A DNA stretch of 64,000 nt from Kiritimatiellia bacterium (GTDB lineage: Bacteria > Verrucomicrobiota > Kiritimatiellia > CAIVKH01): positions 143,499 through 207,498 of the forward strand of contig JANWZO010000001.1 of NCBI GenBank assembly GCA_025054615.1, given 5' to 3'. Shown here piece by piece: positions 8,428 to 42,054 of this stretch (position 1 is its first letter; each line of letters begins with the position of its first letter). The position numbers were made by a program, and so were the translations under genes. A model generated the notes under the pieces. The model was given only the letters and a program-made list of their open reading frames with translations. It ran no database searches and was not told the DNA's origin.

Positions 8428-8904
8428 TCATGGAGCAGCGAGATACCAGCGATAAATCAGATGATTCGCGGCCAGCGCGTACAGGGAAGCAAACACATCG
8501 TCGGCGACTATCCCGAGTCCACCGCTAAGCCTCTGTAGACGAAAGGCCGGCCAGAGTTTGACGATGTCGAAAAACCGATGCGTGACGAAGGCAATCCCCA
8601 TCATGGTCCAGCCCTCCGGCTGGCCCGCGACCGGCAATCCGATTAGGCAGATGGGATAGGTCAGGTATTCATCCGCCACACAGGGTTTGGGGTCTTTCAC
8701 ACGCAATTTGTTTTCGACGGCCTGGCAAACGGGTATGGCGATGAGGGCGAAGAGCAGAGCCGCCATCACCTGACCCTCGATGCCGAAGGTGGAGTTGACC
8801 CACCACGCAAGGGGAAGGCCCAATAGGGATCCGACCGTACCGGGCGCCAGGGGAAAATAGCCGAGGCCGAATCCTGCGCCGATCCAGGCAAGCAAAGCTT
8901 TCAT
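8428..8904 (-). CDS. pgpA: Phosphatidylglycerophosphatase A
   Basis: 158 aa with GFGLGYFPLAPGTVGSLLGLPLA, DEY and DDVFASLYA motifs characteristic of PgpA. Confidence 0.85.
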   Translation of the reverse strand: MKALLAWIGAGFGLGYFPLAPGTVGSLLGLPLAWWVNSTFGIEGQVMAALLFALIAIPVCQAVENKLRVKDPKPCVADEYLTYPICLIGLPVAGQPEGWTMMGIAFVTHRFFDIVKLWPAFRLQRLSGGLGIVADDVFASLYALAANHLIYRWYLAAP

Positions 8905-10502
8905 AGCTCGTCTCCGAGCGCAAATTCATACTCGATGCGGCCCGGCCCGGGCAGCGCCCACACTTCCAGCTTGCGCTGCGGCGCAATGGCGTCGATCCAG
9001 CCTTTCGCCGCGTTCAGCCGCTCGCGGAATGGAAGCGAACCGGTCGGGTTCTCGATCAACAATTTCAGTGACCACGCCGTGATGGCCAATCGGGCCATTT
9101 TCGCACCCTCAGTTAGATCAAATCCCAGATACGCGCCCGCATTCCGCTTATGCATCCGCCCAAGAGCAGCGGACAAAGAGGTTTGATCAACGTCATGATC
9201 AGCGGCCGACCGGCTCTCCCGAAGCAACGCGAGAAGCGCTCCCGCATTGCTCGAAAAAACGACGGACCGCCCGAGGACCGCAAACGCGAGCCGCTCGTTC
9301 ATTTCAGCCGCCGCATAGGCCGAACGGCCGGTCGATTCAATCGCGTACACGCGCTGCGTCCCCACCGAGATGGGGTGGAGAACGAGCCCCCAAGGCGTGG
9401 CCGCATTAATCCGGTCAAGCGCCGCCTGAACATCCGCAACCACGGAGTCCGGGGTCTCCGTTGAGAAGCCGCCGACCAGCGTAGGCAGTCGAACCGCGCG
9501 GTAACGGCCGCTGAAGGGGCCGCCGAGGAGTGCGAAGCCCGCGGCGCCGGTGGATGAGCTTCCAAACAACGCTGCGAACTCCCGACCAAGGAGGTTGTTA
9601 GAAGCCTTGGCGAGCCAGGCAGCCGCCAATGGGCGCCCGGCCACGAGAACAGCAGTCGGCCGTTCGCCCAGCAAAGCCGCCAACTCCTTAAGATCGGACG
9701 AATCCGTAGCAACCGCTGCAGGCCAGCCGCCAGGCACAGCCACCTTTCCACGAAAGCCGCCATTCGGCCGAAAATCCATGGCAAAACGGATGAAGGATCC
9801 GCCATCCTGGCCGTTACCGATGCGGACCCACCCCCAGTCGGGAATTCCCTCATCCGGCGGTGTTCGCGGAGCCGCCGTATCTGCAAGCGAAGGGGCCAGT
9901 CCATCCACGCAGGCGAGCACATCTTCGATCCCGATCGCATCGGCGGCAATGCAGCCCACAACCATCCCTTCCACGATCGAGAAGGTGATTCGCTCGCCTC
10001 CCTTGAGACCCTTGGGAGTCCAGACCCAGACACGCCAGCCGTTTCGAGCGCTCGCCGGTTTAAGGGTCGGGTCATCTACGGACTTCAGGCTCCATCGCAG
10101 CCGCTGGCTCCTGCCGCCAAGCCACGCAGCGAAGACCCATGCCGGGCGGCCGGTTAGCGGCATCGAAGGCACATAGGCCAAAATGAGCTCATCCTGTCCG
10201 AGCCAGTCGATGACGCGCCGGATTTCTGGAGAGACGATCAGGGCCTCCCAGTCCTCGGTCTCTACCCCCATCGCGCCGGCCAAACTTTTGAGCAGGCGAT
10301 TTTCGGAGAGAACGTCCCAGCGTCCAGCCAGTCGCTGGTGCGCCGTGACCCAGGTGGCGTCGGCAGGGACGGCATTCCAAGGGCCCCTGACCGTCCTTGG
10401 AACATGGAACGCCCACCAGAGCGCCGCTCCAGCGGCCCCAAAGGCAAGGAGCCAGAAGGCGAGCCGCCTTGCGTTCACTCGTCGCGCAGCGAGCCTACCC
10501 AT
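8901..10502 (-). CDS. Hypothetical membrane-anchored protein (533 aa), co-transcribed with pgpA
   Basis: Long coherent ORF with an N-terminal TM helix (LAFWLLAFGAAGAALWWAF). Its stop overlaps the pgpA start by 4 nt. No recognizable catalytic motif. Confidence 0.5.
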   Translation of the reverse strand: MGRLAARRVNARRLAFWLLAFGAAGAALWWAFHVPRTVRGPWNAVPADATWVTAHQRLAGRWDVLSENRLLKSLAGAMGVETEDWEALIVSPEIRRVIDWLGQDELILAYVPSMPLTGRPAWVFAAWLGGRSQRLRWSLKSVDDPTLKPASARNGWRVWVWTPKGLKGGERITFSIVEGMVVGCIAADAIGIEDVLACVDGLAPSLADTAAPRTPPDEGIPDWGWVRIGNGQDGGSFIRFAMDFRPNGGFRGKVAVPGGWPAAVATDSSDLKELAALLGERPTAVLVAGRPLAAAWLAKASNNLLGREFAALFGSSSTGAAGFALLGGPFSGRYRAVRLPTLVGGFSTETPDSVVADVQAALDRINAATPWGLVLHPISVGTQRVYAIESTGRSAYAAAEMNERLAFAVLGRSVVFSSNAGALLALLRESRSAADHDVDQTSLSAALGRMHKRNAGAYLGFDLTEGAKMARLAITAWSLKLLIENPTGSLPFRERLNAAKGWIDAIAPQRKLEVWALPGPGRIEYEFALGDEL

Positions 10503-12332: not shown

Positions 12333-15300
12333 TCAGGGAGCTGGCGCTGAGGGCTTTTCCTCAGCCGCTCGAACTTCCCGGCTCGTCAAAAACGCCTGTC
12401 GTTCATCCAGCTCTGCGCGAACGCGGGCCGCGGCATTCGAGTTGCCCACGGCCAGATAGCTTTGTTCCAGCGCCTCCAAAAGCTCGTTGGCGACGCGCGG
12501 GGCTAATGAGCGGGTTCGCTCGAAGCTCTCGATCGCCAGATCGTGACGGCCAAGATCGGCGGCAATCCGGCCGCGGGTTGCCCATAAAATCGGCTCTTGG
12601 GGGGCAATCCGGCAGGCCTGCTCGGTTTTTTCTAGCGCCTCCTCCAGGCGGCCCAGTTCGCGAAGCGTCCACGCCCAATCATTGAAAATTTGCGGCGCCT
12701 TGCCGCGTTCCGCGGCTCTGGCGAAGGCATCGGCGGCCAACAGCCAGCGCGAACGCTTCGTCATGGCGATCGCAATCGCGTACCATCCGAGCGGATTTTC
12801 CGGGTCGATCGCGAGCAGGGAACGTGCCCGGGCTTCGATGTCCTCCGGTTCGCGAACCGGCAGCTCGACGCTGAGGAGCAGTTCCAACGGAAGCCTCGCG
12901 CCCGGCTGGACGGCATGGGCCCGTTCCAAATAACGCAGCGCGGCGGCCCGATCTCTGTTGTTCATGGCCGACTCGGCCAGGTAGAGCAAGCCGGGCACAT
13001 AAACGCTCGATGCCTGCTCGAGCACGGCCATCGCCGCGCGCCATTCCTCGAGGCGACGCCCCGATGCCAAGGCTAGCGCCCGCAATAGCGCCGCCTCAGG
13101 ATTGAGCGGATCTCGCTTGAGGACCTCTTCCGCACTCCGCGCCGCCTCCTCCCATTTTTGCTGCGCCAACATCAGCCGAGCGGCCTCGAGAGCCACGTCG
13201 TTCGTGGCCGCCCCGGACGCCTTGAACCGCTCGAGCGTGTGAGAGGCTTCGGCAAATCTGCCCTCGCGGGTTTGAATACGGAGCAACGCGCGCAGGTGAG
13301 GCAGCGATTGCGGATTCTCGGCCAACTGTTTTTCGAGTTCCTCTCTCACTCCCTCCACGTCCCCCATCGCGGCCGCGCGGAGCGTCTCGCTCAAGCGAGC
13401 GGCCGGTGAATCGGCGACAGTCGCCTGTTCACGGGCGAGCTCGAGCGCCCGACCCGGATATCCGAGCGCTGCCCATTCGGCGGATTCTAGGGCAGCGGCT
13501 TCCTTCAGAATGGTCCTACCGTATTGAGACCGAATCGCAACCATCATCGCGCCTTGAGGATAGCCCGCCATGCCGCGCCGGATTGCCTCGATGTCCTCTT
13601 CGGGGACCGATTCGCCCGCAAGCCGACGCAGCTCAGTGAGGTTGATCCGTGCGGCGAGATGGTCGGGCTGAAGCGAGAGCGCCCACTCAAAAGCTTCCTT
13701 TGCCGCGTTGGTTTCGCCGGCGGCAAACAAATCGACGCCAATTTCGTTGCTCCATCTCGCCCCCGCGCTCACGGTCCAAGCCCGAATTCGCGCCAACCCC
13801 ATGGACAAGGGACCCTTCAACGGGGGGAGATCCGTATCTCGTTGAATGCCCTCCAGCGCGCGCTTCAATTCGTCCGCGTCCGGGCCGGGTTCCCGAACAA
13901 TACGGGCATACAACCCTTCCCGGCGAATTCGACTGGGGCTGTTCAAGGGCGGCGGATAAATGGTCAACAAGACCGGCGGGCGTCCAGCGGACTCCTCCCG
14001 GGAGATCCAATCGCGGAGCATGGTGTCGGCGCCGACGGCAAGGACCCACTCCGGGTCGGCGAAATCATGGCGGGCCTGCAGAAAACGCAGATAGGCCGGG
14101 CTCGTAAGGGCTCCGGCATTCAACAACCGGACGTCGCGCCGGCCGTCGCGGGCTGCGATACGAATCGCATCGTCGAATGCGCCGTCTGAAACGATCCAAC
14201 CGCCTTCGGTCGCTGATTCGAGCACGCGGTCCGTCAGAGCGGCAAACGCCACCGCGTTCGCCCGAACTGAGCGCGGCGCGTTTTGCCATCCCGCGTATAA
14301 GATGGCTGCAACGGCCAGCACGACCGGCGCCAAAGCGACGGGGCGGATTTGCGCTGGCGGAGAACCTAGGGATCTTCGACGCTGAGGGTAACCGAGCCAG
14401 ATAAAAGCGATGCCCATCAAACGGCCAAACCAGAGTGCGGCAGCGGCGTAGGGTGTCAACAGCGCCATCTCGGTCTGCGCGACGCGATTGGGTGCGCCGG
14501 GAAGCTCAAAGAGGATCACCAGAGCAAGACCCGGCAGGACCGCGAATCGTAGCAGGGACAATCCGATTTCGCTCGCTTGGTCGCTTTTGACCTGGATGCC
14601 CCGGCTAAATACGGCCGGCAGCGGCAGAAGGGCGAGCAGGAAAATAACGAGCCAGCCCTGTCGTGGAATTGCACGCGGTCCGGCGGCCATGTATTCAGCT
14701 CGGAACAACGTGAACACGTCCTGAAACGACTTGACCTCCCGCCACGCCGCCACGTCGCTCCAATAATAAAGCGCCAACGCGGCCAGAAGCACGAAAACCC
14801 CCGCCAGCGAGCAGGCCACGGACGCCGTCACTGTGCGGACATTCAATTGCCGGCGCACAGCCAGAACCACAAAGGCAAATGCGGCAAAAAGCGGCGCCGC
14901 AATAGCGATTGTCGCTGACTCGATGGCTCCCACCGACAGGAGCGCCGCGCAGAGATAAAGCGCGCCTAGTTGGTTATGCAGGTAGTATCGCTGAAAGGCC
15001 CACCAGGCCGCCAACAACAGCGGGAGGGCCAAGGCGTCTGGTTGCGGCATTAGGTAGAACGCCTGAGCCGACGACGATGCGCATAAAAACAGGGCCGCCA
15101 AAACAGCCGCCACGGCCCGCGCCGCGGAGTCGTCCTTCATACCTCTCGACGAATCCTCCAGCAGTTCCCGATACGGCAGGTCCATCAGGATCCTCGCCAG
15201 TAAGTAGACGGACACCGCAGCGCACAGAACCTGCAGAGCCACCGCGGCTAGAGAGATGGGTAGAAATGTAAGGACCGTTGAGGCCTGGATCAGAGCGCCC

Positions 15301-15452
15301 CATAGCGGTGTGCTCAGCAACCGAAAGGGGTCAAGGCCCGCATAGCCGGCCAATGCTGATGAGGAAAATCCTGGGACTGGCCGCGTAAGGATGTGAAAAG
15401 AAAAAGCGATCAGCGCGAGAACGCACAAAATCAGAGGGGTTCGCCGGATCAT
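12333..15452 (-). CDS. Multipass membrane protein with GT-C-like fold (TMTC/DUF2723-like) and C-terminal TPR repeats
   Basis: ~1040 aa. The N-terminal ~560 aa is strongly hydrophobic with more than 10 predicted TM helices. The C-terminal ~450 aa is TPR-like (repeated A/L-rich 34-mers, for example AIAMTKRSRWLLAADAFARAAERG). The probable ATG start MIRRTPLIL is at 15452; the track TTG start is at 15515. Confidence 0.6.
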   Translation of the reverse strand: MIRRTPLILCVLALIAFSFHILTRPVPGFSSSALAGYAGLDPFRLLSTPLWGALIQASTVLTFLPISLAAVALQVLCAAVSVYLLARILMDLPYRELLEDSSRGMKDDSAARAVAAVLAALFLCASSSAQAFYLMPQPDALALPLLLAAWWAFQRYYLHNQLGALYLCAALLSVGAIESATIAIAAPLFAAFAFVVLAVRRQLNVRTVTASVACSLAGVFVLLAALALYYWSDVAAWREVKSFQDVFTLFRAEYMAAGPRAIPRQGWLVIFLLALLPLPAVFSRGIQVKSDQASEIGLSLLRFAVLPGLALVILFELPGAPNRVAQTEMALLTPYAAAALWFGRLMGIAFIWLGYPQRRRSLGSPPAQIRPVALAPVVLAVAAILYAGWQNAPRSVRANAVAFAALTDRVLESATEGGWIVSDGAFDDAIRIAARDGRRDVRLLNAGALTSPAYLRFLQARHDFADPEWVLAVGADTMLRDWISREESAGRPPVLLTIYPPPLNSPSRIRREGLYARIVREPGPDADELKRALEGIQRDTDLPPLKGPLSMGLARIRAWTVSAGARWSNEIGVDLFAAGETNAAKEAFEWALSLQPDHLAARINLTELRRLAGESVPEEDIEAIRRGMAGYPQGAMMVAIRSQYGRTILKEAAALESAEWAALGYPGRALELAREQATVADSPAARLSETLRAAAMGDVEGVREELEKQLAENPQSLPHLRALLRIQTREGRFAEASHTLERFKASGAATNDVALEAARLMLAQQKWEEAARSAEEVLKRDPLNPEAALLRALALASGRRLEEWRAAMAVLEQASSVYVPGLLYLAESAMNNRDRAAALRYLERAHAVQPGARLPLELLLSVELPVREPEDIEARARSLLAIDPENPLGWYAIAIAMTKRSRWLLAADAFARAAERGKAPQIFNDWAWTLRELGRLEEALEKTEQACRIAPQEPILWATRGRIAADLGRHDLAIESFERTRSLAPRVANELLEALEQSYLAVGNSNAAARVRAELDERQAFLTSREVRAAEEKPSAPAP

Positions 15453-15467
15453 AACCGTCAAAGATAC

Positions 15468-15508
15468 AAAAAAAGCCCTGCATCTGTCGACGGGGCTTTT
15501 TTTGATTA
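15468..15508. terminator. Bidirectional rho-independent terminator hairpin between the PEP-CTERM gene and the TPR gene
   Basis: A7-GCCCtgcatctgtcgacgGGGC-T7: a GC stem flanked by an A-run and a T-run, so it works on either strand. It lies 13 nt downstream of the PEP-CTERM protein stop. Confidence 0.6.
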
Positions 15509-15520
15509 AGATCAACCGAA

Positions 15521-16348
15521 TTATTTGCGGCGAATCGTCCGAACAACAACCCCAAGAACGCCCAAAGCCGCCAATGCCACGGTCGATGGCTCTGGAACAA
15601 TCGACATCGAATTAATGAAGAAAATGAATTCAGCTCCCAGATCGATGCCGTATATTTGAGCCACGAATGCGCGGGCTCCTGCGCTGATTGTACCGCTCCA
15701 ATTCGTTGTAGCGCCGTCCCGGCGCGTCAGACTTGCCGTGTAATCGTAACCCGTGGAACCAATCGTGATTTTGAGGTTGAGACCTTCCGTCCCATGACCA
15801 ATACCCAGTCCTAGTCCGGAGTTGGAGGCGTCGGTGACGCGATATTGCGAATCGCCGCCGTTGAAATAGACGGTCAGGACCGGATTAGTCGCTCCGTCCA
15901 ACAGTGCGACAGAGGCTTGAAAACGTGGATAAAGGACACCTGTATCAAAATCTACCGAGAAGGTCTGACCAGGCTCGAGTTCAGGGTTCGTTCCCGTAAA
16001 GGGTCGAATGGCTATTGCATCAGATATATCGCCCCACATTCCCCAGGAAACTGGGCGATTGGAAGGATCCTGTGTATCAATATCATTGTCGCCCGCAACG
16101 CCTCCTGTCCATCCGTCATCCGTCAAATCACCATTCGTCACCGAGGTCCACATGAAATGACCTGCAATCATCCCGAATGTTGACAACTGCCAAGGTCCGA
16201 ATCCTGTCCCGCCGTTCGAACCATTCGTCCACGTCAATGAGAAGTAAGCAGGATCACCAGCGTGGTCCGAGGCCAAATTCGCGGCGCTAGCTGTCAGGCC
16301 CATTGCTAAAGTGCAGGAAAGTACTGCTATGCGAATCACATGTTTCAT
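15521..16348 (-). CDS. PEP-CTERM sorting-domain protein (exosortase substrate)
   Basis: Signal peptide MKHVIRIAVLSCTLAMGLTASAAN. The C-terminus reads ...SIVPEPSTVALAALGVLGVVVRTIRRK, which is the PEP motif followed by a TM helix and a basic tail. Confidence 0.85.
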   Translation of the reverse strand: MKHVIRIAVLSCTLAMGLTASAANLASDHAGDPAYFSLTWTNGSNGGTGFGPWQLSTFGMIAGHFMWTSVTNGDLTDDGWTGGVAGDNDIDTQDPSNRPVSWGMWGDISDAIAIRPFTGTNPELEPGQTFSVDFDTGVLYPRFQASVALLDGATNPVLTVYFNGGDSQYRVTDASNSGLGLGIGHGTEGLNLKITIGSTGYDYTASLTRRDGATTNWSGTISAGARAFVAQIYGIDLGAEFIFFINSMSIVPEPSTVALAALGVLGVVVRTIRRK

Positions 16349-16403
16349 TGTTTTAGATCCTTCCCCTACTTATCATGAATGAGCCTATCCAATGATGCTC
16401 TAC

Positions 16404-16419
16404 AAACAAACGTTTGTTT
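16404..16419. promoter_or_regulatory. 16-bp perfect palindrome AAACAAACGTTTGTTT in the divergent promoter region (candidate operator)
   Basis: Read directly from the sequence at 16404-16419. It is a perfectly self-complementary AT-rich 16-mer in a 65% GC genome, between the divergently transcribed PEP-CTERM protein and epimerase genes. Confidence 0.5.
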
Positions 16420-16582
16420 CGTAAAGAGGGATTTTTTTGACAATTTTTGTGGATAGAACAAAAGAAGCCCGTCAGCCTGCACACCACGAGAGAGGCGACG
16501 AGTACCCCGAGGAGCCATACCGCGAAAAAAGCCTTGGAGGCAAAGATTCGTGGGTTATGCTTCCGGGCCAGAAATTTTCCCC

Positions 16583-17662
16583 ATGGCAGTTGCGGTCATT
16601 ACCGGTTCTTCCGGACTTATTGGCTCCGAAAGCGTACTCGCCTTTGCGAGGCGGGGACTGGACGTGGTCGGCATCGAAAATGACATGCGTCGCTACTTTT
16701 TCGGTCCGGAAGCCTCCACCCGCCGCGTATCCGAACGGCTGAAGGCCGAATGCCCTTCGTTTCGCGAGGAAAATGTGGACATTCGCGATGAAGCGGCTAT
16801 CGAACAAATCTTTGCCCGATACGGGCGATCGATTGCTGTGGTCGTCCACACGGCAGCGCAGCCGTCGCACGATTGGGCGGCACGAGAGCCCAAGACCGAC
16901 TTTGGCGTTAACGCCGTAGGCACGTTGAATTTGCTGGAAGCGGCACGGCGATATTGCCCCGACGCGGTCTTTATTTTCACGTCCACCAACAAGGTGTATG
17001 GCGATGCGCCGAATCGGCTCCCCCTCGTGGAAAAAGAGACCCGATGGGAAGTGGAGGCATCGCACCCCTACCATGCCCACGGCATTGACGAATCGATGTC
17101 GATCGACCAGTGCCTGCACTCCTTGTTCGGCGCGTCAAAAGTCGCAGCGGATATTCTTGTTCAGGAGTATGGCCGGTATTTCGGGATGAAGACCTGCGTG
17201 TTCCGCGGCGGTTGCCTGACCGGTCCGCGCCACGCCGGAGCCGAATTGCACGGATTTCTCGCATACATGATGAAATGCGCGGTGACCGGGCGCACGTACC
17301 GCATCTACGGATACCGCGGCAAGCAGGTGCGAGATAACATCCACAGCGCGGATTTAATCGCCGCATTCTTGCGCGTCTTCGAGCAACCGCGCGCGGGCGA
17401 GGTTTACAACATCGGCGGCGGGCGGGCGAGCCATTGTTCGATGATGGAGGCTATCGCGCTGTGCGAACAGATTGCGGGCCGGCCGATGAACACGGTTTAC
17501 GTGGAATCAAACCGCATCGGCGACCATATTTGGTACGTGAGTGACCTCCGCAAATTTCAATCGCACTACCCGGGATGGCGGATCGAGCGCGATGTGCCGA
17601 GCATTTTGAGGGAGATTTACGAGGAGAACCACGAGGCTTGGCTTTCAGAGGCTCAGCCGTAA
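16583..17662 (+). CDS. NAD-dependent epimerase/dehydratase family protein (CDP-paratose 2-epimerase-like)
   Basis: Rossmann motif [12 protein letters not shown] and the SDR catalytic motif YGASK. ATG at 16583 ([11 protein letters not shown]). Confidence 0.75.
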
Positions 17663-18456
17663 CGCTCTTCCGCCGGCGTTGCGTGTGGGAACGGTTCCGG
17701 GCACCAAAGGCCGGTTGCTTGAGCGGCGACCAACACCGCGTAGGCCGGATTCAGCAGAACATAACGACGCCAGAGCCTCCGCGGATTCTGCGCCAGCCGA
17801 TGAAGCCACTGAAGGCCGGCCCGTTGCATCCATTCAGGGGCTTCCCGTGCGAAGCCGGCGTGGAATTCGAACGCGGCGCCCACGGCGATCATCGGCAGTT
17901 TCACCAGCCGCCGCATCTCATAGACGAACACTTCCTGTCGGGGGCAGCCCAGGCCGACAAAAACGATTCGGGCTCCGGAATCGCGGATGGTTTCCGCGAG
18001 CCGGTCCCGCTCGTCGGGCGTGAGCCTGCGAAACGCCGACGGTTTCGCTCCGACCACCAACAATCCCTTGAATCGGTCCGCCAAATTCTCGGTCAGCCGG
18101 GCCAGCACATCCGCGCGGCTGCCGAACAAGAAGATGGGAAGGGACTCGCGCGCAGCGGCTGCACAGACCTCGAGCATGAGCCGGGGCCCGTACACGCGAT
18201 CTCGAAGATGAGCCCGGTGCAGCCAGTTCAAGGCCCAGCGTACAGGCTGACCGTCGGGAGTGACGATGTCCAACTCATTGAGTCGGCGGCGGTGGGCGGG
18301 GTCCATCGCACCCGTCATCACGCCGTGCACAGCCAGGGCCGTGACTCCGAGCGGTTCGCGGGCTTGGGCAGCGGCGAGAATCCGGCGGACGGCCGACTCG
18401 TAGTCGATCACGTCCACCAGTACGCCGAGTACGTTTCGTTTTCCCGTGTCGATCAT
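17653..18456 (-). CDS. WecB/TagA/CpsF family glycosyltransferase
   Basis: 267 aa. The motifs [15 protein letters not shown]...[10 protein letters not shown]...[10 protein letters not shown] are typical of the WecG/TagA N-acetylmannosaminyltransferase family. Convergent 10-nt overlap with the epimerase gene. Confidence 0.75.
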
Positions 18457-18525
18457 CCGCCAATTGATTTTGTGTTTTTTGTCACCCGCTGTGATAAAAG
18501 GAGGTTGTTTGTCTAATCAATTCTG

Positions 18526-19515
18526 ATGATGAAGTCAGTTCGGCAAACCGGTTTCATGACGCTAGGCCTGCTGGCAGCGGGGACGGTCTTCGTGCTGGCG
18601 TGGGGCATTTTTTTCCATTTCCGCGGCGTCACGGATGTCGGCTACATCGTGTCGAAGCCGAATCCTTCCATTTTTTACTGGCTGTATGACCGGTGGTGGC
18701 TAAATGATTTTGTCGTCACTTCGTACGCGATCAACTTTCTGGCGCCGATCTTGGCGGCCTTTCTGGCTTGGCGGCGGCGTACCGCGCTCCGCGACGCGCC
18801 TCGCCGAATCGGGTGGGCGGGGCTGGTTTTGTTTACGGCGCTGCTTGCGCTCCATGTATTGGGCGCGAGGGCGCAGCAGACGAGAATCAGCATCCTCGCG
18901 ATGGTCTGGCTGCCGTGGGCGGCGGCCTTTTTCGCCTGGGGTCCGGCGGTGGCTCGTTTGTTGGCGTATCCTTTCCTGATGGCATCCTGGATCATGCCCG
19001 TCAATTTTTTTGATGCCGCGATGAATCCGTTGCGCGTCGCGGCCGCACACGCGGCGGCCGGCCTTGCGGCGGGAATCGGCTTTCCCGCAACGGCAGTGGG
19101 ATCCGCCATCGTCGAGTCCGAATCGCAATTGTGGGTGATCAACCTCTCCGACTCGACGAGCGGCATTTACGCGCTGTCCGCTCTGGCGATGTTCACCATG
19201 TTGGCGGCGGATTATGTGAAGCCATTGCGTCGCGCCGTTTGGACGGTCGTGTTGACGCCGGTATTCTTTTGGCTCGCCAACACGGGACGCGGGTTTTTGG
19301 CTGTCTTCGTGGCCGAGGTATTCGGCCCAAACGCCGCGAACACGTTGAATGTCCACTACCCGGCCGTGGGGCTCATCGGCTTCTATGTTGCGGCCCAGGC
19401 CGCGTGGCTTCGTTTGAGCGGTCTCGACTGGGGATCGGTCAGGCGCCGGTTTTTGGAACCGCATGAGGCTAGAACAAGGGGACCATGGCGGCCGTCTTCG
19501 GGAGACACGCTGTGA
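18526..19515 (+). CDS. Exosortase (EpsH/XrtA family)
   Basis: 329-aa polytopic membrane protein with the exosortase-like topology. It is followed directly by an EpsI-family gene and sits in a locus with a PEP-CTERM protein. AAGGAGG lies upstream. Confidence 0.7.
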   Translation: MMKSVRQTGFMTLGLLAAGTVFVLAWGIFFHFRGVTDVGYIVSKPNPSIFYWLYDRWWLNDFVVTSYAINFLAPILAAFLAWRRRTALRDAPRRIGWAGLVLFTALLALHVLGARAQQTRISILAMVWLPWAAAFFAWGPAVARLLAYPFLMASWIMPVNFFDAAMNPLRVAAAHAAAGLAAGIGFPATAVGSAIVESESQLWVINLSDSTSGIYALSALAMFTMLAADYVKPLRRAVWTVVLTPVFFWLANTGRGFLAVFVAEVFGPNAANTLNVHYPAVGLIGFYVAAQAAWLRLSGLDWGSVRRRFLEPHEARTRGPWRPSSGDTL

Positions 19516-20309
19516 AGCCGTCCGCGGCGTTGTGGATTTGCACCGCAATTCTGGCGGCACTCTTTGCGGCGCAGCCGCACCTGACCAAGGTCACATTCAT
19601 TGACGAGCCGCCCGTTCCGACGTCCCTTCCGGAACAGGTGGGCGCATGGCAGGGCCGACGACTGGTCAATTGCCAGGCGCAGGATCACGATGAGCCCCTT
19701 TTCGAGGATGAGGTGGGTCCGGAAGGCCGCTGCCCCATCTGCGGAGGCGTGGTCGGCCCGATGACTTCGACCGAAAGATATTTGCTTCCGCCCGATACTC
19801 GGATTGACAAGAGAATCTACCGACGCCGACGGGATGCCGCAGCAGATGCCATCAGCGCGGCGATCGTATTCAGCGGAATTCACCGGGCCAGCATTCATCG
19901 TCCAGAAGTTTGTCTGGTGGGCGATGGCTCTACTGCTGAAATCATACGGACCGAAACGCGGCGAATCCCCTTGGCGAAGGGGCAGGCGCTTGGCGTCTCG
20001 CTCCTGACGGTGCGCCAATTCGGCACTGGGCCTGATGGAAAACCTGTGAACCGCCTGAGCTATTTTGCGTATTGGTTTATCGGCCGCGGACGGGAAACCC
20101 CGTCCCATGTTGAGCGATTGGTCTGGATGGGGCTCGAGCGGATTCGCGGCCGCGCTTATCCATGGGCCTACGTTTCCATATCAGCCGCGCTCCGATCGGA
20201 AGGGGACTCGGCAGCCCTTCGGCGGCTCGACGAGTTCGCGCGGGCGCTGCATGGGGCGCTCCACGCCTTGTCCAGCCCGGGGCCGGTAGAATCCGCATCA
20301 GTTCCGTGA
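19485..20309 (+). CDS. EpsI family exosortase-associated protein
   Basis: N-terminal TM segment (AALWICTAILAALFAA) followed by a periplasmic domain. It overlaps the exosortase stop, the canonical XrtA-EpsI arrangement. Confidence 0.6.
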   Translation: MAAVFGRHAVKPSAALWICTAILAALFAAQPHLTKVTFIDEPPVPTSLPEQVGAWQGRRLVNCQAQDHDEPLFEDEVGPEGRCPICGGVVGPMTSTERYLLPPDTRIDKRIYRRRRDAAADAISAAIVFSGIHRASIHRPEVCLVGDGSTAEIIRTETRRIPLAKGQALGVSLLTVRQFGTGPDGKPVNRLSYFAYWFIGRGRETPSHVERLVWMGLERIRGRAYPWAYVSISAALRSEGDSAALRRLDEFARALHGALHALSSPGPVESASVP

Positions 20310-20395
20310 GTCGGCCTCTCTCAACTTCATTCCCGTATCTCCGACGGGCTGCATTAAATGCCTCGGTTTTGGGATTGGTTGAGGCATCGGGTCTA

Positions 20396-21718
20396 ATGCT
20401 GTCGCTGCTGGCTGGTGGTTGCATTCGGCACTATCTGAAAGGTGACCCGATGCTGGCAAGCTGGATGCTCTACCTTCTCGGAGCGTGGGTCGTTGGCGCA
20501 TATGTGGCCAAACTGCTGCCGGGCTGGGGCCTTGGGCCCGTGGAAGAATTGCGGAGGACCTTCTTTTTACTTTTGACCGTTTTTGCGGGCACCACCGCGA
20601 TGCTGTTCTGGGGGAAGGCCGCAGAGGCAACCAGCCGGTTCACACTTACCTTGGGATTTCTGCTCAGTATCATCGTCGTGCCCTCACTGCGTACCGAGAT
20701 TAAACGCATCCTGTTGAGGCGCGAGGCTTGGGGCGTGCCGGTGGTGATTTACGGCAAACTGGAAGCGGTCCGAAAAGCGGTCCATGCGCTTCGCGAAGAG
20801 CGAGGGCTTGGCTATCATCCCGCCGGCGTGTTTTTGGACGAACCCGACCCGCTGCCGCGGCGGATGGAAGACCTCGAGGTCCTAGGGTCGGTGGATCAAT
20901 TTACGACGTCGGCGCCGATCGCCATTCTTGCGGCGAATGGGTTGTCACCCCAGCGGGTGACGGACTTGATGGATGGGCCCCTTGCGAACTACCGGCGCGT
21001 GGTCATCGTTCCAGATATGACCGAATCGCCGACGCTTTGGGTCAGGCCGAGGGATTTCATGGGTCTCCTCGGAATCGAGATACCGTGCAATTTGCTCGAT
21101 CCCCTCGCGCGTGTGCTAAAACGGACGCTGGACCTTTCCATCGTGATACTCACCGCACCTCTCTGGGTTCCGATCAGTGTGCTTTTGAGCCTTCTTATCT
21201 GGCTTGAGGACCGGAAATCGCCGATTTTCCGCCAGGAACGGATTGGCATCGGAGGCCGCGTTTTTTACGCCCTGAAGTTCCGCACGATGCACCCGGATGC
21301 GGAACGCATCCTGCGGGAACGGCTCGAGGCCGATCCCCGCCTGCGTGCGGAGTGGGAAGCCAACTTCAAGCTTAAAAATGACCCCCGCATCACTCGCATG
21401 GGTCGATTTTTGCGCGCAACGTCATTAGACGAACTTCCTCAGTTCATCAATGTTCTCCGAGGGGAAATGTCGCTGGTGGGGCCCAGGCCCCTGCCGCGGT
21501 ATCACCATGAAGCCCTCCCTGAACGAGCGCGCCAGCTTCGAGAGCGTGTCCGTCCTGGCATCACGGGGCTTTGGCAGGTCTCCGGGCGGAGTGAAGCTGG
21601 CCATGCGGCGATGCCGCGGTGGGACACGTATTACGTTCGAAATTGGTCTATCTGGTTGGACATCGTCATTCTTGTCCGTACGATTCGGGCGGTGCTTTCC
21701 CAACACGGGGCCTACTGA
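20396..21718 (+). CDS. Exopolysaccharide polyprenyl-phosphate glycosyl-1-phosphate transferase (bacterial sugar transferase, WbaP/EpsB-like)
   Basis: The C-terminal domain IFRQERIGIGGRVFYALKFRTMHPDAE...RMGRFLRATSLDELPQFINVLRGEMSLVGPRPL is the hallmark Bac_transf motif. Four N-terminal TM helices. ATG at 20396; the track ORF starts at 20162, overlapping epsI. Confidence 0.85.
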   Translation: MLSLLAGGCIRHYLKGDPMLASWMLYLLGAWVVGAYVAKLLPGWGLGPVEELRRTFFLLLTVFAGTTAMLFWGKAAEATSRFTLTLGFLLSIIVVPSLRTEIKRILLRREAWGVPVVIYGKLEAVRKAVHALREERGLGYHPAGVFLDEPDPLPRRMEDLEVLGSVDQFTTSAPIAILAANGLSPQRVTDLMDGPLANYRRVVIVPDMTESPTLWVRPRDFMGLLGIEIPCNLLDPLARVLKRTLDLSIVILTAPLWVPISVLLSLLIWLEDRKSPIFRQERIGIGGRVFYALKFRTMHPDAERILRERLEADPRLRAEWEANFKLKNDPRITRMGRFLRATSLDELPQFINVLRGEMSLVGPRPLPRYHHEALPERARQLRERVRPGITGLWQVSGRSEAGHAAMPRWDTYYVRNWSIWLDIVILVRTIRAVLSQHGAY

Positions 21719-21725
21719 AGTTGGC

Positions 21726-24146
21726 ATGCCTCCTCTCTTGATCCAGAGAAGGATCCGGCAGTTCCGCGCTCACGAATTCGCCCGCCGGTTCCTACCCGCA
21801 TTCAATAGACTAGTGGCGGGATCCGCCGTGTGGGCCGGCCTGGGTTGTCGTGTTTTCGCACAGGGACCACACGAAATCGCGCTGATCATCAATCAGAACC
21901 ATCCGGACTCTCTGGAAATTGCGCACCACTATGCCCAAATCCGGCAGATACCCTCGGCGAACCTCATCTATTTGGATGTGCCCCGAGATCTGGGCGGCGT
22001 TCGAGCCGAAATTTCTCCTGAATTGTTCCTGCAGGCGATCCTTGAACCCGTTCGGCAGGAAATCGCCCGCCGTAATTTGGAGGACCACATTCTCGCCTGG
22101 GTCTATTCTGCAGGGTTTCCTGTTCGTGTACTGGTCGACCCGCCAATCTCTATCAACGGCGCGACCTTCGTCCGAGGCCAGTTCCCATCCGGCGAGGTGG
22201 TGAAGACAGGCCACTATCTCTCGCCCTTCTGGCGCGGATTCGACAACCCCGGCGGGTCTTCGTTGCCGTCGGGATCACTCCAGGATTTCGCTGCAGCCTT
22301 CCGAGACGCCATGCCCATGCCATCCGCCACGCTGGCCTACACCGCCAATCGAGGATTGACGGTTGAGGAAACCATCGACAGCCTTCGGCGTTCGGCCGCT
22401 GCGGACGGAACGTTTCCGCGCGATCCGTTTTATTACCACTTGAGTGAAAATGTGCGTTGCACAGCCCGGCGCTGGCAATTCGAGGGGGCAGCACGGGAAT
22501 TAGCCCAAATGGGCATATCCGCAGTGATATCCTCAAATGAACCAGCCGTGAACCAGCCTTTGTCAGGACTGTTGGTGGGCATCGCATACACCGACAAACC
22601 CTGGGGCCGTCTGCAACCCGGCAGCCTTGTCGACAACCTGACCAGTTTTGGCGCGGAGTTTCACCACCAGGATCAGGTGCGTCTTACGCACTGGCTTCGG
22701 AACGGCGCTTCTTTCGCCTCGGGCACCGTGATCGAGCCATACTCGGCCTGGCCGAAATTCGCGCATGCACGCCTTTTCGTCCACTACGCGCGCGGGTGCA
22801 CCGCGCTCGAAAGTTACCTGCAGGCGTTGCGCAGCCCTCTTCAGCAATATCTGGTGGGCGATCCGCTCGCGCGCCCGTGGGCACGGCCAATCCCGCTAAC
22901 GCTGATCAATCTCGAGGAGTCTGGGCAGCCGTTGCGGGGTGAAGTCTCATTCCTCGCCTCCTCTCTGGCCGCGGAACCAGGGATGGTCTATGTCTTTCTC
23001 TTGGACGGCCGAAGTCTCCCTACGCCCGGCAATACAGCGGGAATCCGGCTCGACACTCGAAATTTTGACGACGGCTGGCATGAGCTGCGAGCAATCGCAT
23101 ATTCGCCCGGACCCATCCGTCGACAAGGTCATGCGAGGCTTGGCTTTCTCATTGGAAACTTGGGGCGGTCCGCGAATCTGCGGCTAACCGCGACCGATAA
23201 GCAGGTGGACATCGATCGACCTTTCTCTGTTGCTGTTTCCGCGTCGGCGGGGGCCACCGGAATTTCCATTCGCGCGCATGAACGAATCATTTGGAGCGGA
23301 ACCGCTTCCACCCAGGAACAAATTGTGGTGCTGAATGCGGCGCGGATTGGGGCCGGTCCCGTTCCGTTGCAGGCCGTGGCGCATTTTCCTGACGGGAGCG
23401 CGGTACGGAGTCCTCCGCAGATCGTTCAATTCAAGAGCCTCAACCGGCCGCCCTCGCCGCCTCAGATCGTTTCGGTTGAGGACAAGCCGGGCGAACGCCG
23501 ATTTCGGATCGTTTCAGAAGATCCGGATGGAGATGAGGTTTCGGTCGACTGGTTCTCCGACCGGTTGGCGCACCCGCCACGTCCGGTAGTCCCGGATTCC
23601 GACGGAGGCTGGACTCTTTCCGGCACGGGGCGAGTTGTGGTTGCCAACATACCGACCCTGGCCGACGCGGACGTGCGCGAATTGGTCTTCCAAATGCGAA
23701 CAACCGATGTCCGGCATGATACGGGTCCTCTGGTGGGCGGTATCGCCTGGTCACTGAAGAACGATACCGAATACACATATTTCGGCTGGCATTGGCATTG
23801 GAACGCTTGGGCGATTGGGCGCTTCAAAGATGGCTCTTTTCACCCCATCCATGCGAGGGGGGTACCACGGCCGCCGCGAGGGCATGAAGTGATCTCCCTC
23901 TGCAACACGCCTACCGGGCTGCTGATTAAAGTTGACAATCGGGAGTTCGGATTCATCGCCGGAGAACGGATCCGGGGGCCGTTCGGGCTGGTCGGCGGTC
24001 CGATCCCGTGGACGCTCACGGCGCTGCGAGTTGCTGAGTCGAACGAGGCATCCCCGCCGCGTAAAGGAATGTGGCTTCGCGCGTCTGACGGGATCGCGGA
24101 GACATGGGCGCCGGCGTCCACACCTGCAATGACGCCATCGCGCTAG
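21726..24146 (+). CDS. Secreted hypothetical protein (806 aa), last gene of the exosortase locus
   Basis: ATG at 21726 lies 5 nt after the sugar-transferase stop. Signal-like N-terminus ...LVAGSAVWAGLGCRVFAQGP. No catalytic motif recognized. Confidence 0.55.
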   Translation: MPPLLIQRRIRQFRAHEFARRFLPAFNRLVAGSAVWAGLGCRVFAQGPHEIALIINQNHPDSLEIAHHYAQIRQIPSANLIYLDVPRDLGGVRAEISPELFLQAILEPVRQEIARRNLEDHILAWVYSAGFPVRVLVDPPISINGATFVRGQFPSGEVVKTGHYLSPFWRGFDNPGGSSLPSGSLQDFAAAFRDAMPMPSATLAYTANRGLTVEETIDSLRRSAAADGTFPRDPFYYHLSENVRCTARRWQFEGAARELAQMGISAVISSNEPAVNQPLSGLLVGIAYTDKPWGRLQPGSLVDNLTSFGAEFHHQDQVRLTHWLRNGASFASGTVIEPYSAWPKFAHARLFVHYARGCTALESYLQALRSPLQQYLVGDPLARPWARPIPLTLINLEESGQPLRGEVSFLASSLAAEPGMVYVFLLDGRSLPTPGNTAGIRLDTRNFDDGWHELRAIAYSPGPIRRQGHARLGFLIGNLGRSANLRLTATDKQVDIDRPFSVAVSASAGATGISIRAHERIIWSGTASTQEQIVVLNAARIGAGPVPLQAVAHFPDGSAVRSPPQIVQFKSLNRPPSPPQIVSVEDKPGERRFRIVSEDPDGDEVSVDWFSDRLAHPPRPVVPDSDGGWTLSGTGRVVVANIPTLADADVRELVFQMRTTDVRHDTGPLVGGIAWSLKNDTEYTYFGWHWHWNAWAIGRFKDGSFHPIHARGVPRPPRGHEVISLCNTPTGLLIKVDNREFGFIAGERIRGPFGLVGGPIPWTLTALRVAESNEASPPRKGMWLRASDGIAETWAPASTPAMTPSR

Positions 24147-24414: not shown

Positions 24415-27400
24415 CTACGGATTGAAGTTCTTGCCGGGTATCGAATAGTAGAGCCGATTGGTCCAGTACATCATACCCGGATTGCGACGGATGATGATGA
24501 CGACGTCGTCCGGCCGGATTCTGAAGTTGGCCACCGTTGGCGGCGATGAGAATTCATTCGTATTGTACGCAGCGAGATTCCACGTTGTCCCGTCCGACCT
24601 GAGATGCCATCGGACCCGCGGATGCGTCAGCGATGCGATGCCATTGCTGACGCTCAATATTCGGATTTCATCCGCGAAGGCCACAAAGTTGTGGCCCACC
24701 ATACCGGATCCGCGGAACAACGCGCCCGTGAGGCTTACATGGATTGGATAATTCCAGTTCAACACGTGGAATAGATTGCTGCCGCTACCCGATGCCCCTT
24801 GAATGGCGATGACCTGTTGTTGCGTCATCACGCGGCCTACGATCGGCAGGTGGATCGTCGGCGATCCAACCGGCAATTCGATCATAAAGCCCTGATGAGT
24901 CGGGAAGACCATGTCATTAGCCACCGCACCCCAATCGCCTGTCCAACGCAACCAGGTGCCACCGCTGCTGCCGCCGTACAACCCGACGGTATTGGTCACG
25001 AAGTTGTAGGATCCGGTGCCTCGTTGCGGGCTGAACCAATGGATCTTGGTCGCCGTCGCGTAGGTTGTGCCGGCCGGCACACGGTTGGTTCCGAAGACAT
25101 AGGCAACCGTTGCCGTATCGGGTACGAAGAACGTGCCATACCAGTTTTCGCCGGGCACCAGGCGGATGGGCTTCGTCACGTACACCTCCCGGCTCCCGCG
25201 GCGCAACGCGTTGGTCGGTTGCCAAGCGTCTTGAAGCGAGACGCGATAGAACCGCATCGTGGCGCCGAGCTCCTCCGGCGGGACGCGGTAATGGTTGGTC
25301 GGGCTGAAGCCGCCTTCATCAATGAGCATGTTGCCGCCGGCTACATTATTGGTAATTCGATCGAGCCATTTCCACGCGTTGCTGAGCGAGTCACTGAAGT
25401 TCAGGGCATCGACGAACAATTCGTCGTACACCCGATTTGTGGAAGCAATCCAAGCCAGGCGCACCCCATTTGTGCCCGGGCTGAACACTCTGGAGATGCC
25501 CTGCGTGACCTGGAAGTTCACGGTCAGGCCGGTCACGACCACTTCAGGGCTGAGGTTCCCAGCCGCATCGCGGGCTCGGATGCGCACGCGATGAAGGGCA
25601 TCGAAGTTCAAATTCGAAATGATGATCGAAGAGGTATTGTTGGAACCAAGGTTCGGGATTTGCGCCTTGGTGATCACCGTGGTGCTGATGGGATTGAATG
25701 AACCATCAAGTTCATGAACGGTGATGATGTACGTGTCCCACGGTGAAAGCGGCGTATTATCGGAGGTCCGCCATCCGGCCGCGATGTGGCTGTTCGTGTG
25801 GCCGGGCGTCCACTGGACTTTGATTTCCGTAGTCTCGTCGACCAGCGGATCATCGGTCACATTGGTCGCATTGGCCACCGGGAGCGGAGGATTGGTGTCG
25901 ATCCGCAAACGGAAGGCGACCACGCTGCCCATCGCCCGATCCTGTGAGGAAGCAGACGGACGATCGAGATCGTTATCAATCGCGAAGATAAAGCCTGTGA
26001 TGGTGCCCTGCTGATGCAGCAAGCTGACCACCTGGCTGGTCTGGTTGCCTGGCACGTTGAAGCCGTGGTTGGTGGCCGTTGGCGGGGTTGTGCCTATCGC
26101 GGGCGCGACGATGCGATACTCATCAATGCCATGATAATCATCCGTGGCGTGATCCCAACGAATCGTGACCGATGTGAGGTTCGTCCATCCCAAGGAATTG
26201 GTATCAGCAAGGAATCCACTTTGGAGGACGATGAAATTGTCGATATAGATCCCAGGCGAGCCATCCGTGCCTACGCGCACCAAGCGCAGCGTAGTGATGC
26301 CCGGCCAATCAATATTCCATACCTCTGACTGATAATCCGCAGAGTCAACCTCATTTGTGCCGGCGCTGGCCCAATTCGTCCCATCCCAGAACAGGAGTTC
26401 GAGGTGACGAACCGCGCCGGTACTGGACAGCCGGGCATCCACCATAACCTTGCCCACATCGGTTCGCGCCGGTGTTTGCAGGTACTGGCCGACCCCTGTC
26501 GCTGCGAAGCCACCTTTCCGGACTCCGCCAGCCGCATCCCCAAGATTTACATAGGTGGTGCCGAACCAAACACCTGTACCCAGACCATTGGTCACGACAT
26601 TTGTCCAGAGCGTACCCGAGGCAAGAAATGCGGGCCATCCCTCAGAGGTCTCAAAGGATGTGAACAAAACCGCCTCGTCGCTGAAAGAATTGTCGACCTG
26701 GAGGCTCGTCATGGACGGGCCTTTCACGTCGTCGTCATAAACCCGGATCCAGCCGTAGGACAGCGCGGCGTTGATGCTCACATCGTTGGTGCGGTCATTG
26801 TCCGAATCCTGCAGATTCACACGGACCAGGCTTCGTTTGGCCATCGTGAACAACGTGTTGTTGATAAGCTGATTAATCTGCGACTCGGTGAAGAATCCGT
26901 TCGTGAACGAGAAGATGTTGGTCTGAACGACACCCGGCGCGTTGTTGGAGGTGGAGAGCGAGGCGTTCCAACCAATGATGGTATTGGTCACGATCGGCGT
27001 AGTGAGCCGGATTTCGAAATTGATCCCGTCATTGGTGCCACCAGAGGTTGCACGGCGGATTCCCGAGCCGAGATCCATGGCCCCGAAGGCGAATTGTAGG
27101 CCTTTAGAGCCGCTGAGGGCGAGCTCTTCATCCGTCACGGCAAATGTGGAATTCGTACTGGTTCCCTCGCGCCGCGGATAGGTCCCGCGAATTTCCGTAT
27201 CTCCGCTGCCCAGCGGGAAGAGATTGGTGAGTATGAAGAATGGGCGGGCGACAGAGCCGGTGTAGATAATGTCCGCCATCAGCGGACCGTCCGTATCATC
27301 GTCGATCAGGCGGATGTATCCGGCCAACAGATTCGACGCAATCATTTGGTCATTCACTCGATCTGCATCGTTGTCCGGCATGGTCACAGTGACGGCAAGA

Positions 27401-41595: not shown

Positions 41596-42054
41596 CACAA
41601 AACCCTCGTTTAGCGCTTTACGATCCGCTTCCAACAAGCCCTGCCCATCAAGAATCTGTTAGAGAAATAACACAAAAATATTTGGACTGTAAACACCGTA
41701 CATCCATTTTCTATCGCATGGAAGGAGCCGGGGGGCGGTTCGCATTGGGTGCATTTATGAATTTGTCCAGCCCAACGGACCGTGCAGATCGCTGCAAGGA
41801 GGAACTACCAGCCGGAACCCGCCTCTTGGCCGGAGAGACCGACCGTCCTACGGATTCAGCCACCTTTTCGACAGATTCTGAAAATTCCAAGCGATGGAAC
41901 GGAGCGGACGGCAACTTTACAGACGATGGAAACATTCCCGTCCGGTACGAGCCGCTGCCCGCCACCGGTTACGATGGACTGCTGCACCTCTTCCTTTTAC
42001 CGGCCGGAACAGCGAGCCGTCAGGCTCTGGCACGGAAGGGCGAACCCCACCCGC

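Follow-up and report, generated by a model that had tools for sequence, protein, structure and literature searches.

Does the island of eight genes at positions 12333-24146 of a Kiritimatiellae metagenome-assembled genome (MAG) encode a working exosortase together with the substrate that it sorts? The island lies within a 64 kb stretch, here called the window, and statements on the genome beyond these 64 kb rest on the assemblies of relatives. An earlier interpretation (hereafter the sequence-only reading) described the island as a self-contained exosortase system with its own PEP-CTERM substrate. All eight open reading frames (ORFs) were found at the coordinates it gave, and family searches largely bore out its family-level labels (exosortase homolog, EpsI, priming transferase, second glycosyltransferase, SDR and one PEP-CTERM protein). 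The central gene, 18526-19515, encodes a member of the EpsH family in which a threonine stands in place of the catalytic cysteine. Judging from the sequence comparisons presented here, the region 18526-24146 is probably a module of a catalytically degenerate exosortase paralogue, EpsI, a WbaP-type transferase and a TIGR03790 protein, in which the exosortase paralogue would have a non-catalytic adaptor role. The four genes of this region are as follows, with bit scores given against the cut-off of the respective model.

18526..19515, plus strand: exosortase-family membrane protein of 329 amino acids (aa) with zero Cys (PF09721, 70.8 vs 25.7)
19485..20309, plus strand: EpsI-family protein of 274 aa (PF11984, 53.5 vs 26.1)
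20306..21718, plus strand: WbaP-type polyprenyl-phosphate hexose-1-phosphate transferase (TIGR03022, 404.5 vs 403; TIGR03025, 346.1 vs 295.55; PF02397, 206)
21726..24146, plus strand: TIGR03790-family secreted protein of 806 aa (TIGR03790, 78.2 vs 67)

An EpsH homolog without the catalytic cysteine

Three invariant and putatively catalytic motifs have been described in EpsH, namely C-x-G, with the Cys as the proposed nucleophile, N-x-x-R and H-x-x-x-G (Haft et al. 2006, PMC1569441), and in the archaeosortase ArtA, which is homologous to exosortases, Cys173, Arg214 and Arg253 were critical by mutagenesis (reviewed in PMC9263693). The homology of the 18526-19515 product to the PF09721/EpsH family of 8-TM proteins (TM, transmembrane) holds, as the protein also scored 183 bits against a hidden Markov model (HMM) built from 106 Cys-bearing homologs. 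It resembles the EpsH/exosortase family (PF09721/TIGR02602) in being polytopic, in its N-x-x-R motif, in having EpsI encoded next to it and in the nearby polysaccharide genes and polyprenyl-phosphate transferase. It differs from the family in carrying T211 in place of the invariant Cys, in containing no Cys at all, and in belonging to a clade in which H-x-x-x-G is not kept.

Homologs were collected by an exhaustive HMMER search of 1.84 billion representatives, which returned 442 sequences (a word-indexed search gave 3 matches), and the active-site columns were read from an alignment of the 139 best-scoring ones. Thr211 was found to occupy the catalytic-Cys column of C-x-G, which holds Cys in 107 of the 139 aligned homologs; where the homologs carry the motif A-D-P-C-S-G-[IL]-R-S, the window protein reads T211-S-G. 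The HMM of Cys-bearing homologs likewise paired 'dVadaCSGlRSL' with NLSDSTSGIYAL at high posterior probability ('CSGlRSL' vs 'TSGIYAL'). The active-site neighbourhood is altered as well, with C-S-G-l-R-S turned into T-S-G-I-Y-A and changes at the canonical R215, S216 and Y/H/D/Y positions. Ser212 and many N-terminal invariant residues of exosortases are kept, as is the N-x-x-R motif in the form N252-T-G-R255, of which R255 is invariant in the clade. In the H-x-x-x-G region the window protein has H277-YPAV-G282, which is one residue longer, and the profile places H277 on the canonical His; among orthologs from related loci (labelled L below), those of L007, L008 and L010 have no His at the canonical position, and the His of L001 is shifted. 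We considered whether T211 might reflect a sequencing error and rejected this. The codon at 19156-19158 is ACG, which differs from TGY at no fewer than two positions, so that a sequencing slip is not plausible, and an identical protein is encoded by an independent Logan assembly of run SRR15826902.

When tested as an exosortase by HMM, the protein stayed below the trusted cut-off of TIGR02602 (46.3 vs 105.55), a model that the sequence-only reading had itself proposed as a check, below the signature model TIGR04178 (21.1 vs 23) and under the trusted cut-offs of every named Xrt type. XrtA is the nearest named type, and the label 'XrtA' given in the sequence-only reading proved wrong (TIGR03109, 56.9 vs 208). 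Because both the defining catalytic feature and the curated cut-offs fail, the exosortase label is unfit for this gene; by these sequence criteria its product is an EpsH-family homolog that should be filed neither as an exosortase nor as XrtA.

Cys-less and canonical groups among relatives

A scan of one genome per GTDB species gave 30 loci, all from Kiritimatiellia, Verrucomicrobiota, Lentisphaerae or other MAGs of the Planctomycetes-Verrucomicrobia-Chlamydiae (PVC) group; these were complemented with loci obtained by protein look-ups and with one metagenome locus. A metagenome scan for DNA encoding 'ADSTSGI[FY]AL' returned 11 stretches, one of which (L042) was a true relative. By sequence, neighbourhood and phylogenetic tree, the exosortase-like loci fall into three groups, A, B and C.

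Group A is canonical and comprises 19 loci (L013-L021, L023-L031 and L035), with 64% identity within the group and 34% to the Cys-less clade. Its members keep the motifs F-D-V-A-D-P-C-S-G-I-R-S-L, G-N-x-A-R-I and Y-H-D-Y-S-G, pass TIGR02602 (154-171 bits) and TIGR04178 (70-77), and lie just below the XrtA cut-off (154-179 vs 208). Group B consists of the window, L001/L002, L007-L012, L022, L042 and L050/L051, representing 12 independent loci. It is monophyletic with long branches and confined to Kiritimatiellia/PVC MAGs; its copies fail TIGR02602, and no NCBIfam model was found to cover it. The canonical pairs of group A share with group B the phyla, the motifs HW-GAKAQQTRLS, P-L-N-F-L-D and P-L-R, and the same type of EpsI with a zinc-ribbon-like insert and SIHRPxxCL, whereas C-S-G-I-R-S, G-N-x-A-R-I and Y-H-D-Y-S-G are kept by group A only. 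Group C forms another Cys-less lineage, distinct from group B and marked by the motif D-P-A-S-G-L-G, in which EpsI comes next, followed by a different Bac_transf-type transferase scoring ~143-156 bits to that of the window. Its exosortase-like genes lie at:

L032, 9983-10921
L033, 9617-10852
L034, 4357-5277
L036, 2420-3718

At the former Cys motif, group B members read D-[STP]-T-S-[GS] or carry R, A, S or P, and the column as a whole holds T, A, S, R or P. The H-x-x-x-G histidine is not conserved across the group, the H277 of the window not being common to L007, L008 and L010. With such variation in the nucleophile column of group B, it is unlikely that another residue has taken over as a conserved nucleophile. 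This variation bears on an alternative in which the protein would be an active exosortase using another nucleophile, Thr211 or Ser212, together with Arg255 and H277, and the island a working minimal sorting system for its PEP-CTERM neighbour. Such a reading could draw on the Thr being kept in the closest orthologs (the window, L001, L007-L010, L022 and L042), on the retention of S212, N252 and R255 with H277 aligned to the canonical His, on purifying selection (below) and on the PEP-CTERM gene adjacent in the window. However, the same column holds R, A, S or P elsewhere in the clade, the His is absent in three orthologs, the whole active-site neighbourhood is altered, canonical paralogues occur in the same genomes, and no PEP-CTERM gene was found at the other clade loci. 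Internal Thr nucleophiles are moreover rare in Cys-protease scaffolds, and we consider this alternative unlikely.

The same assembly was found to hold a group-B and a canonical copy in at least four cases, and a group-C and a canonical copy in a fifth assembly (CALGMT01):

ACE_NR_VERR3: L008 (group B) and L017 (group A)
CALMUP01 contig 38: L011 (group B) and L016 (group A), ~23 kb apart
CALBHI01: L012 (group B) and L019 (group A)
GCA_035327585.1: L002 (group B) and L023 (group A)
CALGMT01: L021 (group A) and L036 (group C)

Pairwise dN/dS ratios (nonsynonymous to synonymous substitution rates; Nei-Gojobori) in group B were 0.14 for L011/L012 (dS 0.48) and 0.17 for L008/L010, and the canonical paralogues L016/L019, from the same two MAGs as L011/L012, gave 0.022 at a dS of 0.56. 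The Cys-less gene is under purifying selection, which is about six-fold looser than that on the canonical copy. Across 14 clade members 17 columns are invariant, including H110, Q118, R120, D163 and R255, and the group-B ORFs are intact though the loci are only 30-47% identical. In L011 (9947-11653) and L012 (335-2041), as well as in P0123, P0125 and P0127, the exosortase-like protein and EpsI are fused into proteins of ~570-590 aa, whose former Cys position holds Arg or Pro.

These observations also speak to the possibility that the Cys-less gene is a functionless, decaying relic of a duplicated exosortase. The loss of the catalytic residues, the long branches, the roughly six-fold higher dN/dS than in the canonical paralogue and the fragmentation of the transferase and TIGR03790 genes downstream in L009 would fit such decay. 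Against it stand the ORFs left intact at this level of divergence, the maintained exosortase-like/EpsI fusions, and a gene order and apparent translational coupling that are strictly kept (see below). A dN/dS well below 1 combined with the 17 invariant columns argues against a decaying pseudogene and fits a protein with a changed job, and we regard a relic as very improbable.

The conserved operon and its neighbours

The order of exosortase-like gene, EpsI, WbaP-type transferase and TIGR03790 gene was found in every group-B locus long enough (seen in the window, L001, L007-L011, L022, L042 and L050/L051). As the PEP-CTERM and transmembrane (TM)-TPR genes of the island have no homologs in the relatives, the conserved module is limited to the four plus-strand genes at 18526-24146. 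The exosortase-like and EpsI genes share 31 nt, and the EpsI stop codon and the GTG start of the transferase overlap as GTGA; in sequence terms, these overlaps are consistent with translational coupling. Upstream of the operons of relatives lies an SDR gene, sometimes with WecG and GT4 glycosyltransferases. Group A loci are usually without the transferase and TIGR03790 pair directly downstream, and in L031 and L037 this pair is located upstream of the canonical exosortase. Larger polysaccharide clusters adjoin the operon in L050 (1-8735), L001 (1-5742) and L007 (1-5726), encoding GT4 glycosyltransferases, a heparinase II/III-like protein, a CapK-like AMP-binding enzyme, DUF362, ALGX/GDSL acyl-esterases and unannotated polytopic membrane proteins; these clusters are missing from the window. 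In L009 (11687-15494; MAG FR_21) both downstream genes are broken by frameshifts, that of the transferase into two ORFs and that of the TIGR03790 protein into three, through either assembly error or real decay.

The window EpsI has a single N-terminal TM anchor (here and below, hydrophobic segments and anchors are from computed hydropathy), a SIHRPEVCL motif and a Cys-rich, zinc-ribbon-like insert. Its assignment to EpsI in the sequence-only reading stands as far as PF11984 homology, the position after the exosortase-like gene and the shared motif are concerned, and falls short at TIGR02914 (32.1 vs 42.8), likewise one of the checks that this reading had proposed. In all relatives with downstream sequence except L020 and L030, the EpsI gene comes next after the exosortase-family gene, to which it is fused in L011/L012, and it is intact in groups A, B and C. 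All examined PVC EpsI proteins (L001-L036), whether their partner is canonical or Cys-less, carry the insert as C-x4-[CH]...C-P-x-C-G, ahead of LLP-x-DT and SIHRP[EQ]xCL.

The priming transferase was correctly labelled in the sequence-only reading, passing both TIGR03025 and TIGR03022 (scores above). Its likely start is the GTG at 20306, the longest ORF beginning at 20162. Orthologs follow EpsI in all group-B loci, with 632-766 bits to the window protein and 498 bits for the frameshifted L009 copy. The enzyme resembles the WbaP/EPS_sugtrans transferases (TIGR03022, TIGR03025) in its Bac_transf catalytic domain and N-terminal TM segments, and it differs from the XrtA-system transferase, scoring below that model (TIGR03013, 151 vs 393.35).

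The last gene of the operon was earlier said to encode an 806-aa secreted protein with no recognizable function, which is an overstatement in view of its TIGR03790 score and its recognisable domains. The ORF is 100% identical to NCBI protein NZ740_00785, for which the NCBI start gives 777 aa, and its database homologs bear the name "TIGR03790 family" at NCBI and JGI. Behind a signal sequence, the protein has a gingipain-like alpha/beta domain (~47-385), followed by two Ig/Fn3-like modules and, at the C-terminus, a CBM66/ConA-like beta-sandwich. An AlphaFold2 (AF2) model based on 55 homologs reached a pLDDT of 91.7 and a pTM of 0.91. When compared to the Protein Data Bank (PDB) by Foldseek, the N-terminal alpha/beta and Ig part matched best to the gingipain R RgpB (1cvr/4ief; E 4e-8, TMt 0.47-0.51) and the C-terminal domain matched CBM66 (4b1l; TMt 0.70). 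A profile search of the PDB returned the CBM66 levanase 4azz (E 8e-4) and the X1/Fn3-like 3pdd, and gave no sequence match for the N-terminal domain. A function as a C25-type cysteine protease (gingipain) was rejected: the protein superposes on RgpB as well as on CBM66, but the 55-sequence family alignment contains no invariant Cys and no invariant Cys/His dyad of the RgpB type, and the similarity is one of fold only. The invariant polar residues of that alignment are N56, S62, R73, T147, R244, R248, T306, S307, E337, K344 and E362.

Co-occurrence of this protein with the exosortase-like gene, proposed as a check on its being a system component, was confirmed, as it follows the exosortase-like, EpsI and transferase genes in every group-B locus long enough. 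The subfamily with at least ~47% identity (about 780-810 aa) always comes after the transferase in group-B operons. A 39% identical protein (P0022) is likewise encoded after a Bac_transf gene, with no exosortase within 10 kb upstream and with Wzy_C-TPR, Wza, Wzz-kinase and BBP2_2 genes as neighbours. The TIGR03790 protein is tied more tightly to the priming transferase than to the exosortase. The more distant members L004-L006 lie away from exosortase genes, among unrelated neighbours. In two unrelated contexts (L004 10001-12897 and L005 10001-11982) a small HAD/PNK3P (GmhB-like) phosphatase gene lies directly after the TIGR03790 paralogue, which hints at a sugar-phosphate-related role of the family.

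The remaining features of the island are:

12333..15515, minus strand: TM-TPR protein of 1060 aa, with ~10 hydrophobic segments (1-410), a linker and a C-terminal TPR array (~590-1030)
15521..16348, minus strand: PEP-CTERM protein of 275 aa with a signal peptide (PF07589, 27.3 vs 20.7)
16349..16549, no strand: intergenic region of 201 bp between the divergent PEP-CTERM and SDR genes, locally AT-rich, with a TTGACA hexamer at 16437-16442; a candidate promoter only
16550..17662, plus strand: SDR-family NAD-dependent sugar epimerase/dehydratase (PF01370, 135 bits)
17653..18456, minus strand: WecG/TagA/CpsF-family glycosyltransferase (PF03808, 187.5 vs 27.4; TIGR00696, 159.6 vs 69)

The PEP-CTERM label was borne out by the PF07589 match, the signal peptide and a C-terminus with the PEP motif, a TM helix and a basic cluster (tail VPEPSTVALAALGVLGVVVRTIRRK; N-terminus MKHVIRIAVLSCTLAMGLTASA). 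A six-frame tail scan found this ORF to carry the one PEP-CTERM tail in the 64 kb, 2.2 kb from the exosortase-like gene. Neither a homolog of the protein nor a PEP-CTERM tail was found in 37 related loci, a relaxed scan included, and the 11 metagenome stretches, L042 among them, likewise showed no tail when scanned strictly. For the 1060-aa protein, called "GT-C+TPR" in the sequence-only reading, the TPR array was supported by TPR Pfam families. A relation to GT-C families such as PMT_2, DUF2723 or ArnT-like proteins was unsupported, the N-terminal 570 aa having no Pfam match (E<=1) and no PDB sequence match; a single homolog of this part was found in a database of 5.8 billion sequences, and its AF2 model was unusable (pLDDT 35.5). 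Residues 215-328 match the N-terminal TM region of the XrtD model weakly (TIGR04152, 19.8 bits, E 3.5e-4), probably through hydrophobic bias. Identity of the protein with PrsT was rejected (TIGR02917, 74.4 vs 312.2), and no homologs of it were found in the related loci. A pair of an unknown gene and a TPR gene downstream in L001/L007 was considered as an equivalent of the PEP-CTERM and TPR pair of the window, and was rejected for showing no BLAST similarity and no PEP-CTERM tail.

The minus-strand translation of 17653..18456 confirmed its WecB/TagA-type glycosyltransferase label at the family level. The gene runs towards the SDR gene (convergent) and away from the exosortase-like gene (divergent), and it is inverted relative to its homologs in L001 and L022, which precede the SDR gene on the plus strand. 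The best NCBIfam matches of the SDR protein all remained below cut-off (for example, dTDP-glucose 4,6-dehydratase at 116 vs 365), and it is not orthologous to the SDR preceding the operon in relatives, with 31-37 bits against the other group-B SDRs. The PEP-CTERM, TM-TPR, SDR and WecG genes are lineage-specific neighbours outside the conserved module. Nor are the genes arranged in two divergent blocks as previously described: the strands run (-,-)(+)(-)(+,+,+,+), and with the WecG gene on the minus strand between the plus-strand SDR and exosortase-like genes, there must be at least four transcription units. A shared promoter postulated at 16349-16582 was left unconfirmed by a consensus scan, which found no sigma-70-like site there; promoter and terminator matches over the whole region were no better than in shuffled sequences.

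These results allow the view of the sequence-only reading to be weighed, namely that of a self-contained minimal XrtA/PEP-CTERM system for which the missing export and regulatory genes would be found in other parts of the genome. In its favour, genes for exosortase, EpsI, priming-transferase and PEP-CTERM homologs do stand close together, and exosortase genes are typically embedded in exopolysaccharide loci (PMC1569441). However, the exosortase homolog lacks the catalytic Cys, stays below TIGR02602, TIGR04178 and, by a wide gap, XrtA, canonical pairs are present in relatives, and the putative substrate gene is not a conserved neighbour, no PEP-CTERM gene having been found in the related loci. 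The transferase and the TPR protein fail the XrtA-system and PrsT models, respectively, and unlike in XrtA systems, PrsK, PrsR and PrsT were not found among the scanned ORFs of the window; relatives of the window protein moreover coexist with a canonical copy. The scanned larger ORFs contained no Wzx, Wzy, Wza, PrsK or PrsR domains, as had been stated before, and neither a histidine kinase nor a sigma-54 activator turned up in the ORFs that were scanned. On this comparison it is unlikely that the island sorts a substrate of its own as a self-contained system, and a minimal XrtA system completed from elsewhere in the genome appears quite improbable.

Housekeeping genes flank the island at a uniform GC content of ~0.57-0.63, and no mobility marks were seen at the island in gene context or GC. 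Upstream are encoded a Lon-substrate-binding-domain protein, an L,D-transpeptidase, TamB, an Omp85/TamA-like protein and SLT, with the PyrD/PyrK genes immediately adjoining the island; downstream follow ClpB, LpxD, Skp, BamA, DnaB, PRPP synthetase, a GGDEF protein, OmpA, LpxL and Nqr/Rnf subunits. A 533-aa ORF between the SLT gene and pyrD (8901-10502, minus strand) has an N-terminal membrane anchor and no Pfam match. Convergent with the operon lies a giant ORF of 5740 aa (24415-41637, minus strand) with an N-terminal signal peptide, PATR (autotransporter passenger-associated) repeats, and DUF1573/HYDIN-like Ig and fn3 domains; it was rejected as a sorting substrate, being without a PEP-CTERM tail and also without a recognisable C-terminal anchor. 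A GAF-GGDEF diguanylate cyclase (54476-56005, plus strand), 30 kb off the island, might provide a c-di-GMP input to envelope polysaccharide production.

A possible adaptor role

The reading that we favour as probable for 18526-24146, a module built around a degenerate exosortase paralogue, could work as follows. The Cys-less protein would no longer carry out Cys-dependent transpeptidation and, together with EpsI, would serve a glycan-priming module as a membrane adaptor without catalytic activity, in analogy to iRhoms among the rhomboids. The WbaP-type transferase would make undecaprenyl-diphosphate-hexose (Und-PP-hexose), the TIGR03790/CBM66-like protein would act on or bind periplasmic glycan, and the adaptor would link undecaprenyl-phosphate (Und-P)-sugar priming and the periplasmic TIGR03790 protein to envelope polysaccharide assembly. 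To this end it might bind, without cleaving, PEP-CTERM tails or a lipid-linked glycan acceptor on behalf of an active exosortase. Processing of the window's PEP-CTERM protein would in that case fall to a canonical exosortase whose gene lies beyond the 64 kb. A broader proposal, that Kiritimatiellia and related PVC bacteria keep dedicated, selected pseudo-exosortases which were recruited with EpsI from sorting into a glycan-priming module as adaptors beside an active exosortase, is more tentative, and we place it a little short of an even chance.

Several observations weigh against the adaptor interpretation. Thr is present at position 211 in 8 of the 12 distinct group-B loci (the window, L001, L007-L010, L022 and L042), Ser212, Asn252 and Arg255 are kept, and H277 of the window protein is aligned to the canonical His by profile. 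A PEP-CTERM gene lies only 2.2 kb from the Cys-less gene in the window. The coexistence with canonical copies is known from assemblies of relatives, the window's own 64 kb being without a Cys-bearing exosortase, and the adaptor mechanism itself is drawn by analogy. That analogy is with iRhoms and Derlins, which are likewise polytopic intramembrane protease scaffolds that have lost the nucleophile, are under selection and occur alongside active paralogues; they are, on the other hand, eukaryotic and of an unrelated fold. A client-binding function has been demonstrated for iRhoms, whereas for the Cys-less exosortase-like protein we only infer client binding.

Our literature search found no paper describing Cys-less exosortases or TIGR03790, and exosortases of Kiritimatiellia appeared in passing mention only. 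What is new here is a degenerate yet selected sortase paralogue hard-wired to a priming transferase; the island as first described is ordinary. Automatic annotation labels the Cys-less genes "exosortase" or "XrtA", by which a functional sorting enzyme would be ascribed to genomes in error. To our knowledge, the acceptor and partners of bacterial exosortases are unknown, and EpsI is without an assigned function. A nucleophile-less paralogue that keeps EpsI beside a priming transferase suggests that the exosortase scaffold is physically connected to the synthesis of lipid-linked glycans, and could serve as a natural "trap" variant for finding binding partners. If the proposal is true, the Cys-less copies would be a bacterial counterpart of iRhom-type pseudo-proteases and would offer a handle on what exosortase and EpsI bind.

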